Source: a virus. From it: a stretch of DNA of 64,000 nucleotides. The notes beneath the pieces were generated by a model. The model did not search any database and was not told the origin of the DNA. It saw only the letters and a program-made list of their open reading frames with translations. Each line of letters begins with the position of its first letter. Position 1 is the first letter of the stretch. This document shows, in pieces, positions 3,322 through 7,098 of this stretch. A program made the position numbers and the translations under genes. Location of the stretch: the IMG/VR virus record IMGVR_UViG_3300048909_000330, positions 598 to 64,597 of that record; one strand, given 5' to 3'.

Positions 3322-3521
3322 AGCGTTGGCTCCCACGACTGATCCAGTTTCTTTGCGTCGGTCAGCCCGAGCCACAACAAGAAGCGCTCGCGCCACGTGA
3401 GCCAGTGGATTTGCCCGTCGCTGCAAACCAGCATCGGGCCGTCTACATGCTTCCACTGGATGAACGGTTCGCCGTGGCGATGAACGATTGTGAAACTGCC
3501 GTCGCGGTGAAAGCGGATCAT
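3318..3521 (-). CDS. Hypothetical phage protein
   Basis: 4-nt overlaps at both ends. Confidence 0.6.
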   Translation of the reverse strand: MIRFHRDGSFTIVHRHGEPFIQWKHVDGPMLVCSDGQIHWLTWRERFLLWLGLTDAKKLDQSWEPTL

Positions 3522-4834
3522 GTCGGCTCTCCTGTCGATTCGGTGGGAGGGGTTTTAAGAAGAACAATGGCCTTGTGAATTGCATCCGATTCGTCATGAG
3601 CGACGACGTTGCTACCCGCCAATACTCGCAGGAGTTCCAGTTCATGCGCCGTCATCCCGCCCGCATCCACGCTGACCGAATTGCGTAACTCGTCTATGGT
3701 GTCTTGCAAGCGATGAATACACTCCTGCTGCTTAACGGACTGTTCGTTGCCCGCTTTCAAGCCACGATCAAAGGCAGCTTGTACCGCATCCACGCTTACC
3801 GGCTTTGCGGCGGCGAGTTTGCCGGGCGCAGCGGGCAACGGTTGCCAATGGGATGGCGTCCAGCTTGCGCCGTAGACAGTCCAACTGCCGCCGTTGATGC
3901 CGCCTACTTTGATGCGCCAATCATCCGCATGGTCGAACTGAACCGTGACCAGCACGTTTGTATCGCGCGGCGGCTCTTGATCGGCGACAGCGATCCAGCG
4001 GCTCGCCCCACTATCGGCTTTAGGGGTGGCGATCTGGGCGCGCACAAACGCCACTAAGTTGTTAATTGAGAAAACGCGCAAACCTTGTGACCGATGAATG
4101 TCCCGCCCCGAATCATATTTCAGCGAGTTTTCGATAATATCGTCATCCGTCAACGTCGCCTCTTGCGCTGCGGTGGATGGCGCAGCAGTCGACCAGTCGT
4201 GATGCCACATGAACGCGCAGTACGCGGCAACGTCGCGCGGATCGCCTTTCGCAATGTGATTCATCAGGTCGGCGCGGCACTTGTCCTGCCAGTCGTCGGC
4301 GGTCCACGATGCGCCGTATCCGTACTTGCGCTGAGAAGCCAGCAGCTTGTTTGCAAGCGCGCGAGCGAACCGGCGGACCAGTTTGGCCGTGTCCGGGTGC
4401 AGTTCGTCGCTTACCTTGATCGGCAGTTCGTCGGCTGGCGCAGCGGGTTGCGAGGGTGCCGGAGCGGCCTTAATCATTGCGCGCCAGATTTCCTTCTGTG
4501 TTGCGCCGTTGTCCCATTCATGATGAGCGATACCGATCATTTCTCCGGTAGGTTCGATCGGCACCAATGCGTAGCCTTCCATCAGTGGCGGTCGCTTCGC
4601 CAGTTCCGAATACTGCGCAAAGGTCATCGTCACGGGCTCGTCAGGGTGAGCAACAATGCCCCGCACATCCGCACCCCCATCCGGTTCGCTGAAGCCGGTG
4701 ATAGGAGAGGTGCTTTCGAGGTAGGCGAGGATCGCTTCAGATTCGTCAAGGCTGATGCGCACGCCGGTTTCATTGGCTACCGCGTCCTGCAAAGCTTCGA
4801 TGCATGCCTTCTGGCGGTCTGTATAGGTTGTCAT
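3518..4834 (-). CDS. Mosaic Ead/Eaa-like protein with a DUF551-like module
   Basis: HIAKGDPRDVAAYCAFMWHH module; RWIAVADQEP...SHWQPLPAAP module. Confidence 0.7.
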   Translation of the reverse strand: MTTYTDRQKACIEALQDAVANETGVRISLDESEAILAYLESTSPITGFSEPDGGADVRGIVAHPDEPVTMTFAQYSELAKRPPLMEGYALVPIEPTGEMIGIAHHEWDNGATQKEIWRAMIKAAPAPSQPAAPADELPIKVSDELHPDTAKLVRRFARALANKLLASQRKYGYGASWTADDWQDKCRADLMNHIAKGDPRDVAAYCAFMWHHDWSTAAPSTAAQEATLTDDDIIENSLKYDSGRDIHRSQGLRVFSINNLVAFVRAQIATPKADSGASRWIAVADQEPPRDTNVLVTVQFDHADDWRIKVGGINGGSWTVYGASWTPSHWQPLPAAPGKLAAAKPVSVDAVQAAFDRGLKAGNEQSVKQQECIHRLQDTIDELRNSVSVDAGGMTAHELELLRVLAGSNVVAHDESDAIHKAIVLLKTPPTESTGEPT

Positions 4835-4848
4835 GGTGTCCTCTGGGG

Positions 4849-5595
4849 TTAGGCGGTCAACTCGAATTCGGCTATTGCGGCTTCGAGGATTCGTTCGCGC
4901 GCGATCTTGAAATAGTCCTCGTCAATCTCGATACCGATGAATTTCCGGCCGGTGTTCGCGCATGCAACGCCTGTCGTGCCACTACCCATGCAGTTGTCCA
5001 GCACCGTGTCGCCCTCGTTGGTGTACGTGCGAATCAGGTACTCCATCAGGTCGACGGGCTTCTGCGTCGGATGTAGCGCGGATTTCTGCTTGTCACCCGA
5101 GAAGAACAGCACGCTTCTCGGATAGCGTTGCGTCGAGTCGTACGAGGTCTCGCGCTGCTTACCGTAATTCGTTGAATAACTCGATCGCCTGGTCGTTTTA
5201 CGAGCATGCCCATCGGTCATTTGCGGGTTATAGGTCGGCTGCGTCCGGTAGAAAACCAGCGCGTTTTCATGCGCCTTCAGCGGCGCGCGGTTCGCGTTCA
5301 GATGCCCTGTAGCGTTACCCTTTTCCCAGATCCATTCGTATCGCAGATTGGCTAGGTTCGAGGCACCCAGAACCTTATCGAACGGTGTCTGGGCAGTCAG
5401 CACAACGGCACCGCTGCACACGCGGTCGTACTCAGCCCAGATCCGCTGCAGATCAAGCTGCGAATCCCATTTGTTGCGGGTCGTGCCGTACGGCAGATCG
5501 CACAGCACGAGCTGCACACTCTTGTCGTCTAGTCGCGGCAGCACGTCAAAGCAGTCTCCGAAGTGCAGCGTCGCATCTTTTATGATTACCGGCAC
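4849..5595 (-). CDS. DNA N4-cytosine/N6-adenine methyltransferase (beta class), orphan
   Basis: DLPYG (motif IV), HPTQKP and VLDNCMGSGTTG (motif I) in beta order; no cognate endonuclease. Confidence 0.92.
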   Translation of the reverse strand: MPVIIKDATLHFGDCFDVLPRLDDKSVQLVLCDLPYGTTRNKWDSQLDLQRIWAEYDRVCSGAVVLTAQTPFDKVLGASNLANLRYEWIWEKGNATGHLNANRAPLKAHENALVFYRTQPTYNPQMTDGHARKTTRRSSYSTNYGKQRETSYDSTQRYPRSVLFFSGDKQKSALHPTQKPVDLMEYLIRTYTNEGDTVLDNCMGSGTTGVACANTGRKFIGIEIDEDYFKIARERILEAAIAEFELTA

Positions 5596-5629: not shown

Positions 5630-6769
5630 TTAGGCCGTCATTGCTGCGCGGATGAATTCCGCCGCGGCTTCCGCGTTGATCGCGTTGCCGTAGGCGCGCA
5701 GTCGTCCCACTCGCGAGGGAGCCCCATTAACCAGCGGGAATGTGCCGGGTTCAACTGGCCGCCACTTTCCATCCCGGCACAGGAGCCAGTCAGCAGCTCG
5801 CCAGAAGCCGTTAGTCGGGCCGGCTGGTTCGTTATGCACACTTCGACCGTCTTGCGACTGCTGTCCGTGTTTCCCGCGGCGTTGTATCCCCTCTGCGCCG
5901 GCGTGCCCGCCATAGGAGTGGGCCAGCCCGCGAATTGCGCCACATGATTCAGGCTCACCGCCACCTTGCGGCCGTCCGGCGTCTGCCCTGTCGCGCTCAA
6001 GCCCTCGAACGACTGCGAGCCCTTCGAATTTCCAACTGTCGGCGTCGGCCAGCCGGCCAGCGTCGACGCCATGCCCAGCGTCATCCCGAAGCCGTTGTTT
6101 CCGTGACGAGCTGCGCACTCCGCTCGCCGCGCTTCCCACGTCGAGTCGTTGTCGTTCTGCGGCCCCGCGTTCGGTGTCGGCCACGATGCCAGCCACGCCA
6201 CGCGCCCGAGCAATGCATTCAGCGGCACGTTCGCGCACTCGCTGCCGTCTTTGTGATCGCGCGTCGTTGGCGTAGGCCACGAAGAAAGTGCGGTCTCTGA
6301 TGTGCGGCGCACCGACGCCCGCAGACGGGAAAGGGTTCGCGGCGCCGGCGTAATCCACGGCTTCCAGGTCATCGAAAACAAGGTCGATCCAAGGGTCGAC
6401 ATCCTTGCTTGCAACCTGCTCGCCAAAGATGACTGGAGGGCGGCACTCGCTGATGAGGTGGTGCCACGCCGGCCAGAGGTGCCGCTCGTCAGCAAACCCA
6501 GCTCCTTTGCCTGCCTGGGAGAAAGGTTGGCACGGACAGGAACCGGTCCAAACAGGTCGATCATCAGGCCATCCGGCGAGTCGAAGCGCGTACGACCAGA
6601 CACCGATTCCGGCGAAGAAATGGCACTGTGTGTATCCGCGAAGGTCGTCTGGTCGAACATCCTCAATGCTCCGTTCATCAACGTCGCCGGGTGCAATGTG
6701 TCCGGCGGCTATCAGGTTGCGCAGCCACGCTGCGGCGTATGGTTCGATCTCGTTGTAGTAAGCAGCCAT
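5630..6769 (-). CDS. C5-cytosine DNA methyltransferase, alpha-like chain lacking motif IX
   Basis: HFFAGIG (I), GSCPCQPFS (IV), GEQV (VI), [10 protein letters not shown] (VIII), YGNAI (X); start [10 protein letters not shown]. Confidence 0.88.
5638..6660 (-). CDS. Nested +1-frame beta-like MTase chain with four WPTP repeats and a motif IX-like segment
   Basis: 340-codon frame inside the alpha gene; GGAG 8 nt before its ATG; [13 protein letters not shown] resembles motif IX. Confidence 0.75.
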
Positions 6770-6798
6770 GCGAGCACAATTGGCCGAATAGGCGAGGG

Positions 6799-7098
6799 TT
6801 AGGGTTGCGCGGTTGCTTTCGCGATGGCTGCACGCGCACGATGAAATCCACCCTTTCCGCCGAGCCATGGCGTATCGAGGATTTCTTGCAAAGCACCAAT
6901 CAGATCAGGTTCTGCATTCTTGATCTCACCATCGGCCAGCAATTCATCGATCACGTCTTCGTGATATGTCGCCATGTCCGCGCGGCAAATGTCCGTGAAC
7001 TGGGCTTCTACCGTGTCGTGATGGCCGAGCATGTAACCACTGTTGAATGCCCGGATAAGGTCCCTTTTGCTCATGATCTCTATTCCTGTACCGGCCAA
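6799..7098 (-). CDS. Hypothetical phage protein
   Basis: Co-oriented; ends RARAAIAKAT as many phage early proteins do. Confidence 0.6.
   Translation of the reverse strand: MAGTGIEIMSKRDLIRAFNSGYMLGHHDTVEAQFTDICRADMATYHEDVIDELLADGEIKNAEPDLIGALQEILDTPWLGGKGGFHRARAAIAKATAQP

Follow-up and report, generated by a model that had tools for sequence, protein, structure and literature searches.

Two overlapping reading frames on the minus strand of a prophage are both real coding sequence under selection, and we consider it highly probable that together they encode a two-chain orphan C5 cytosine methyltransferase belonging to the prophage early operon. They lie between positions 5630 and 6769 of the 64,000-nucleotide (nt) stretch of DNA analyzed here (positions 598 to 64,597 of IMG/VR virus record IMGVR_UViG_3300048909_000330, a 69.6-kb provirus record), which is referred to in full as the window. 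One chain, alpha, corresponds to the catalytic large domain of C5 methyltransferases; the other, beta, is read from the same DNA in a second frame and contains a variable array of WPTP repeats for which a role in DNA recognition is most likely. The two-frame layout is conserved in thousands of phage genes, which are usually misannotated.

Two open frames in the same DNA

The alpha and beta open reading frames (ORFs) lie in frames designated A and B, where B is A+1:

5630..6769, minus strand: alpha coding sequence (CDS), frame A; 379 amino acids (aa) plus stop; predicted catalytic subunit of a C5 DNA methyltransferase
5638..6660, minus strand: long form of the beta ORF, frame A+1; from ATG 6660, 340 aa plus stop

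A first-pass annotation, made from the sequence alone, had described a split methyltransferase written in two overlapping frames that both stay open for about 1 kb, and the two ORFs (6769–5630 and 6660–5638, minus strand) are as it described. The maximal extent of the frame-A ORF is 5630..6868 (412 aa), with the family-conserved start at ATG 6769, and that of the ORF in frame A+1 is 5638..6696, also on the minus strand. There are no stop codons in frames A and B inside the window's alpha CDS, 14 in the +2 frame, and three to seven in the antisense frames; because these other frames are full of stops in the window, and likewise across 67 homologous loci, the openness of both A and B is not a matter of chance.

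Selection acts on both frames

Eighty genome loci containing beta were retrieved for comparison of the frames, with stop codons counted over 67 of them and shuffling of the alpha linker (the stretch between its two structured parts) performed over 63. The loci span Beta-, Gamma-, and Alphaproteobacteria, Planctomycetes, Actinomycetota, and Kiritimatiellae, with identity of beta down to 32%, and at nearly every one both chains can be aligned from end to end with both frames open, beta always being in frame A+1. Over the 67 loci, frame A has no internal stop, frame B has 32, and the +2 frame has 659, in agreement with the earlier expectation that both frames remain open in homologues, and the 32 stops in frame B are mostly either beta's own stop or an early N-terminal one. 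Among loci of 53–56% guanine-plus-cytosine (GC) content, those of Xenorhabdus, Rouxiella, and Yersinia pekkanenii have no frame-B stops in the counted interval, and Y. aleksiciae and phage K1ind2 have two each, included in the 32. Both frames are interrupted or shifted in a few exceptional loci, numbered L052, L084 (Arsenophonus endosymbiont), L076 (Sodalis), L006, and L082 in our set; these interrupted copies look like decaying prophage genes and form a natural contrast to the intact loci.

The number of stops to be expected was obtained by synonymous-codon shuffling of the constrained frame, which for the linker preserves the beta protein. No stop is present in the alpha linker at any of the 63 loci (83 expected), none in frame B over alpha residues 95–165 (35–37 expected), and none over alpha residues 320–355 (4.7 expected).

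Substitutions were also counted at each codon position in pairs of sequences with 75–97% nucleotide identity, codon positions 1, 2, and 3 of frame B being positions 2, 3, and 1 of frame A. The shares falling at the third positions of each frame, and the frames that are constrained, are as follows:

Alpha 1–36 (control, no overlap): frame-A third positions 68%, frame-B third positions 16%; frame A only
Alpha 38–91 (beta 2–55): frame-A third 66%, frame-B third 19%; frame A only
Alpha 95–165 (beta 59–129): frame-A third 52%, frame-B third 30%; both frames
Linker, alpha 168–318 (beta 132–282): frame-A third 20%, frame-B third 60%; frame B only
Alpha 320–354 (beta 284–318): frame-A third 43%, frame-B third 38%; both frames
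Alpha tail 357–376: frame-A third 58%, frame-B third 23%; frame A only

A column-wise diversity analysis agrees with this map, and the same bases are found to encode two highly conserved peptides, 15 residues of alpha (identity 0.84) and 13 residues of beta (identity 0.80).

The alpha chain

Alpha consists of two structured parts joined by the linker, here described with the predicted local distance difference test (pLDDT) scores of its model:

6260..6769, minus strand: alpha 1–170, Rossmann-type large domain with motifs (II/III-like), I, IV, VI, and VIII; pLDDT mostly 85–96
5825..6259, minus strand: alpha ~171–315, linker, unconstrained as protein but kept free of stops; pLDDT <50 at 193–310, aa identity ~0.3
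5633..5824, minus strand: alpha 316–379, conserved C-terminal module including RAYGNAI and the motif X helix; terminal helix pLDDT 94

The first-pass annotation had credited alpha with motifs I, IV, VI, VIII, and X and with no motif IX, and the residues can be assigned accordingly: FFAGIG (motif I, residues 51–56), PCQPFS (IV, 79–84), FGEQV (VI, 115–119, with GEQV at 116–119), HIRDR (VIII, 156–160), and GNAI (X, 361–364), with no recognizable motif IX. All of these are invariant or near-invariant among 46 homologues, across which the N-terminal MAAYYNEI is also conserved, and many columns of the C-terminal module are invariant or nearly so (e.g. D333, R337, Y360, G361, and N362). The variable region is as noise-like as had been reported, being a stretch of ~145 residues (~170–315) rich in Arg, Gly, Ala, and Asp.

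Database comparisons identify the structured parts as the large domain. Alpha matches Pfam PF00145 at 51.1 bits (cut-off 22) over residues 75–173 only, TIGR00675 at 35 bits (under its cut-off of 100.65), and phrog_363 over its full length (E 2e-90). Its AlphaFold2 model is similar to M.HhaI (Z 12.9, root-mean-square deviation 3.2 Å, 163/327 residues aligned, extending to M.HhaI residue 321) and M.HaeIII (Z 11.8), with Foldseek matches at E 2e-6 to 1e-5, and in profile comparisons alpha 73–172 aligns to M.HhaI 74–177 (E 1e-13) and alpha 37–66, weakly, to M.HhaI 3–32. Since only those 163 residues of M.HhaI are matched and the linker is disordered, alpha corresponds to the large domain alone, with the small domain absent. 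No small domain, composed of a target-recognition domain (TRD) and motif IX, was found between alpha motifs VIII and X, where pLDDT is below 50 (193–310) and there is no frame-A selection.

The motif order within the alpha large domain may be permuted (II/III–I–IV), the alignments being order-dependent. A segment resembling motifs II/III lies ahead of motif I within residues 1–45 (6634–6769, minus strand), the gap between the motif I helix and motif IV is only ~6 residues, and structural alignments place alpha residue 1–4 at approximately residue 26–34 of M.HhaI and other methyltransferases.

The beta chain

Three modules are recognized in beta:

6286..6465, minus strand: beta 66–125, conserved helix and beta-hairpin (LQSSLxSRL...GSTLxxLTWK...LRASVRRTS); pLDDT 70–83 in the model of beta alone
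5911..6285, minus strand: beta 126–250, WPTP units, four in number and separated by variable spacers, presumed to recognize the target; substitutions concentrated at frame-B third positions
5686..5835, minus strand: beta 276–325, conserved C-terminal module with RLTASGE; aa identity 0.80, with invariant P305, P315, and W318

The helix-hairpin is encoded by DNA that also encodes alpha motifs VI–VIII and is constrained at all three codon positions. The WPTP units are those of W128, W160, W204, and W246; homologues have from about one to six or more such units (e.g. L016:615–1952, L028:1405–2643, and L053:1501–2151), the length of beta ranges from ~210 to ~450 aa, and the length of the alpha linker tracks that of beta. 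Within the C-terminal module is a 13-residue string (residues 303–315, at 5716–5754) that had been likened to motif IX. It was also said to be the end of beta, which is approximate only, as a further 25 residues follow it.

Beta matches phrog_1008 and phrog_31772, both PHROG families labeled 'DNA methyltransferase' (E 1e-39 to 1e-40). Neither Pfam nor NCBIfam has a family for it, the ESM Atlas returned unnamed viral clusters only, with a poor model, and PHROG searches with pieces of beta returned beta-type families only, with no in-frame fusion and no separately encoded version. The AlphaFold2 model of beta alone has a pLDDT of 53, with fair confidence only in the helix-hairpin (70–120) and the C-terminal module (281–325); such a poor fold is expected of a chain that requires a partner. 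A wide fold search with VIA-align was uninformative (best Z 4.2, to the helix-hairpin only).

Predicted complex of alpha and beta

The two chains are predicted to form a complex. Modeling of alpha 1–379 with beta 66–330 gave an interaction prediction score from aligned errors (ipSAE) of 0.91 (median of three runs), compared to 0.00 for the best of three controls, with a partner pLDDT of 61–62 and 60–82% of contacts common to the runs. Among solved complexes 58 of 80 attain this mark, and among mismatched pairs 2 of 110 do so, counts that hold only roughly for alpha and beta because author-built alignments were used. In the model beta 69–116 is in contact with alpha 120–168, WPTP units 3 and 4 (beta 198–212 and 240–246) touch alpha, and beta 276–325 meets alpha 315–379. 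The motif IX-like string, beta 303–315, is predicted to pack against alpha motif X (360–366), alpha 339–346, and motif VIII (154–156), and its predicted contacts with motifs X and VIII are compatible with those of motif IX. The modeling of the two chains together that the first-pass annotation had suggested yields a complex that passes its controls.

Candidate translation starts of beta

Two candidate start regions for beta are located as follows:

6669..6672, minus strand: GGAG, the ribosome binding site (RBS) put forward in the first-pass annotation, 8 nt upstream of ATG 6660
6493..6507, minus strand: AAGGAG (6507–6502), a 6-nt spacer, and TTG (6495–6493), a candidate beta start conserved family-wide that gives a 285-aa beta

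Beta had been described as a +1 frame of 340 codons with an RBS of its own. The frame is open and the GGAG is present where it was placed (6672–6669, 8 nt before ATG 6660), but it is doubtful that ATG 6660 is the real start, or the only one. An ATG is present at the equivalent position in only ~27 of 63 homologous loci; beta residues 2–55 evolve as pure frame-A sequence with no selection of their own, and this stretch has five frame-B stops (in five loci) compared to 15 expected. Nearly all loci have a start codon at alpha codons 92–94 behind a Shine-Dalgarno-like run, and it is the sole one available where frame B is closed upstream. With residues 2–55 unselected and the start at alpha codons 92–94 conserved, ATG 6660 may be either not used or not used alone.

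The candidate start at alpha codons 92–94 is created by unusual codon choices in frame A. At the Asp codon that yields ATG, GAT is used by 28 of 29 and 11 of 12 loci (background ~40%), the Phe92 codon is TTT in 27 of 30 (background 18%), and the Gly89 codon is GGA in 23 of the 30 loci having Gly there. Judged from these sequence patterns, beta probably starts at TTG 6495 rather than at ATG 6660. We think that the short beta (285 aa) is the conserved protein, although this phage may produce the long form as well.

Proposed organization and alternative explanations

We propose that alpha would be translated straight through frame A and would supply the whole catalytic large domain, comprising the S-adenosylmethionine (AdoMet)-binding motif I, the catalytic Cys of PCQ, the ENV-like GEQV, RxR, and the motif X helix. 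The linker (~145 residues) would be an out-of-frame reading of the beta gene, disordered and joining the two structured parts, and any stop in it would cut the motif X helix off from the rest of alpha. For beta, ribosomes would initiate internally on the mRNA that also encodes alpha, most likely at TTG 6495, which AAGGAG precedes, and possibly at ATG 6660 too. The helix-hairpin of beta would dock on the motif VI–VIII face of alpha, its variable WPTP array would be the presumed TRD, and its C-terminal module would pack against motif X, like motif IX in enzymes made of one chain. Alpha and beta would then form a single enzyme that methylates the DNA of phage and host, with protection from restriction as the probable benefit. 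We infer that the heterodimer is the active enzyme, that beta reads the DNA sequence, and that beta begins at the internal TTG; the biological role of the enzyme is likewise inferred. The assignment of the TRD and motif IX to beta draws on the parts that alpha is missing, the variable repeat array, and the predicted interface.

Several points weigh against this interpretation. The beta pattern L-N-P-x-H-x-x-W-L-M-G-L-P-x-x-W resembles motif IX of E. coli Dcm, LTPRECARLMGF, so the likeness noted in the first-pass annotation holds as a pattern, but homology is not significant by any of three approaches. An hhalign comparison of the beta profile with E. coli Dcm gave a non-significant probability of 0.09; a hidden Markov model (HMM) of beta 278–322 compared with Dcm and 5000 shuffles gave p=0.046 with alignment to the wrong region of Dcm; and Smith-Waterman alignments of short beta segments with Dcm were non-significant throughout. 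The best 120 matches in a database search with Dcm are orthologues 74–100% identical, too uniform to yield a better profile. A profile search of the PDB with beta returned two chance matches only and no significant similarity to a solved structure. In view of this lack of significant sequence similarity, the labels 'motif IX' and 'TRD' for beta have their basis in its pattern, its position, and the interface seen in the model. The score of the complex is itself a model confidence derived from author-built alignments, and co-variation between the alpha and beta alignments is partly forced because the same DNA encodes both. The joint probabilities of the stop-codon and codon-bias tests are overstated because the loci are phylogenetically related. 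Finally, TTG 6495 and ATG 6660 are both candidates for the beta start.

Other explanations have to account for the same data. Beta could be a selected overprinted protein with its own function (some other DNA-binding or anti-defense role) and not a subunit, with alpha acting by itself or together with a host factor. No homology between beta and a methyltransferase domain was detected, and the database name of beta, 'methyltransferase', may merely reflect its position; however, alpha would then be left without a structured or conserved DNA-recognition domain, and so without the means to read a target, the complex model (0.91 versus 0.00) places conserved beta modules on conserved alpha surfaces, and every beta in the 80 loci and in the phage records examined was accompanied by alpha. 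We regard a separate function as improbable, though less so than the remaining alternatives. A single polypeptide could also be produced through two programmed frameshifts, with ribosomes reading frame A as far as motif VIII, moving by +1 to read the TRD and motif IX in frame B, and returning to frame A for motif X. The motif order would then be canonical (I–VIII, variable region, IX-like, X), and the GLP of beta is only ~12 codons before the GN of alpha in the DNA. Such a product has little to recommend it given that frame A is open through the whole linker (0 stops, 83 expected), that frame B is already open ~70 codons upstream of where a shift could sensibly occur (0 stops, 35–37 expected), that the dual constraint in both flanking overlaps is not required of a frameshift product, and that frame B has a conserved internal Shine-Dalgarno sequence and start made by biased frame-A codons.

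Slightly less plausible again is that alpha is not one chain, with its N-terminal catalytic and motif X parts being separate, or its C-terminal part being joined to beta in the manner of M.AquI, and the linker left untranslated. The linker shows no constraint as a frame-A protein, a disordered structure is predicted for it, and RefSeq presents a homologue as two partial genes, but these 'partial' genes lie within one uninterrupted 400-codon frame, and the freedom of the linker from stops in all 63 loci (83 expected) is unexplained unless ribosomes read frame A. The remaining alternative, that frame B is open merely through base composition and the conservation of frame A and that there is no beta protein, can scarcely be entertained. 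These genomes are GC-rich (53–72%), which lengthens chance ORFs, and beta 2–55 does resemble a by-product of frame A; nevertheless, 659 stops occur when the DNA of the homologous loci is read in the +2 frame, ~36 frame-B stops are expected by shuffling where none is seen, and frame B also stays open in the loci of 53–56% GC. Moreover, 60% of substitutions in the linker are at frame-B third positions, and beta is more conserved there than alpha. A frame B that is open by chance is ruled out by these codon-position data.

Comparison with known C5 methyltransferases

The closest published layout is that of M.EcoHK31I from E. coli HK31 (recognition sequence YGGCCR; Lee, Kam and Shaw 1995), a two-polypeptide C5 methyltransferase for which both chains are required and the one instance in which such a layout has been established by experiment. 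Its beta lies wholly within the alpha gene in another frame, with internal alternative starts used in the beta frame; its alpha contains motifs I–VIII, motif X, and a predicted TRD, and its small beta contains motif IX (PMC2836561, PMC3404938). The phage beta is also nested inside the alpha gene in a different frame, and the phage alpha likewise has motifs I–VIII and X. There are differences, however. The TRD of M.EcoHK31I is published as being in alpha, whereas the variable WPTP region of the phage enzyme is wholly in beta and its alpha linker is unconstrained; the M.EcoHK31I beta is small, whereas that of the phage is ~285–340 aa; and M.EcoHK31I belongs to a restriction-modification system, whereas the phage gene is an orphan in a recombination operon. 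M.EcoHK31I was compared by its published description, such that the likeness is one of layout, and it is not among the 30 Swiss-Prot structure matches listed. By this analogy the phage locus appears to be of the same nested kind, differing in the place of the variable region and the size of beta. The proposal that it is a phage counterpart of M.EcoHK31I with a much longer beta is supported by the open frames, the selection specific to each frame, an alpha that is the large domain only, and the complex model.

M.AquI (CYCGRG) is a two-subunit C5 methyltransferase with motifs IX–X on its second chain (PMC3404938). It is similarly a natural two-chain enzyme split in or near the variable region, but has motif X on the second chain, whereas motif X of the phage enzyme (GNAI) is on the catalytic alpha chain and the genes are nested. 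The large domain of M.HhaI and of M.HaeIII, both single-chain enzymes, is matched by alpha, with the natural split falling at the boundary of the large and small domains; those enzymes differ in being encoded in one frame with the small domain (TRD and motif IX) between motifs VIII and X, and alpha seemingly differs further in having its motif II/III segment before motif I. C5 methyltransferases tolerate splits between the large and small domains, and artificial splits there complement best, as in M.HhaI, M.SssI, M.BspRI, and M.BsuRI (PMC3404938), which agrees with a natural split into alpha and beta.

A broader proposal, for which we see slightly less than an even chance, is that more than 20,000 clusters (at 50% identity) of phage methyltransferases are organized as a domain-level nested pair, the catalytic large domain occupying one frame and the whole recognition domain the +1 frame, with ~0.85–1 kb of dual coding that few conserved overlaps on one strand in phages or bacteria would exceed in length, with specificity set by the WPTP array, with a permuted order of catalytic motifs, and with M.EcoHK31I as a possible member. 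If this is correct, then the WPTP array could vary freely because the other frame encodes only linker over the WPTP region, and if M.EcoHK31I belongs to the family, its 'TRD in alpha' would be a misread off-frame linker. The locus itself is a clean case of long dual coding and illustrates how two proteins can be written in one stretch of DNA by making use of a domain boundary: a frame that needs only an open linker leaves the other free to evolve a variable recognition domain. Temperate phages are likely to owe evasion of restriction in part to this family, which would also offer engineers a naturally two-part scaffold of a C5 methyltransferase, such as has been sought for targeted methylation.

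Distribution and annotation

Homologues of beta are numerous. A word-indexed search identified ~8000 of full length with 47–81% identity, and with the beta profile 22,187 cluster representatives are matched when the threshold is E<=0.001 and 8,466 when it is E<=1e-30. By tblastn, beta is present in 223 phage records, including phages of Escherichia, Klebsiella, Rhodobacter, Salmonella, Burkholderia, Xanthomonas, and Pseudomonas. Literature searches found no paper describing this phage family or its two-frame arrangement.

The first-pass annotation predicted that gene callers would miss beta, which is only partly so. The public gene calls of the record analyzed here include the 340-aa beta and neither the 379-aa nor the 412-aa alpha; with beta filed and alpha not, the caller kept the presumed recognition chain and dropped the catalytic one. 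Both ORFs are annotated in Escherichia phage K1ind2 (GU196280, 2010; L003:1020–1949 and 1108–1905), as 'putative C-specific methylase' and 'putative Mte8-like protein', and no paper explaining the name Mte8 was found in the literature. The prediction does hold for an E. coli EC20 prophage (NZ_CP084900.1, L090:2330–3532), in which RefSeq leaves an intact 334-aa beta unannotated and gives an intact 400-codon alpha ORF as two 'incomplete' DNA cytosine methyltransferase pseudogene fragments. Pipelines thus either call one frame or split an intact gene into pseudogene fragments, and it follows that thousands of phage methyltransferases are mislabeled, with the recognition subunit filed as 'hypothetical protein'.

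Neighboring genes

The alpha and beta genes are located in an early operon with ERF, YqaJ, and SSB genes upstream and an N6/N4 methyltransferase gene directly downstream; the immediate upstream neighbor terminates at 6799. No restriction enzyme was found among the neighboring ORFs scanned. The downstream gene (4849–5595, minus strand; Pfam N6_N4_Mtase, E 6e-31) encodes a second orphan methyltransferase and begins 35 nt past the alpha stop, so that the operon contains two tandem DNA methyltransferases. Downstream of both is a 438-aa ORF (3518–4834, minus strand) with a DUF551 domain (E 5e-8), the remainder of which has no Pfam match.

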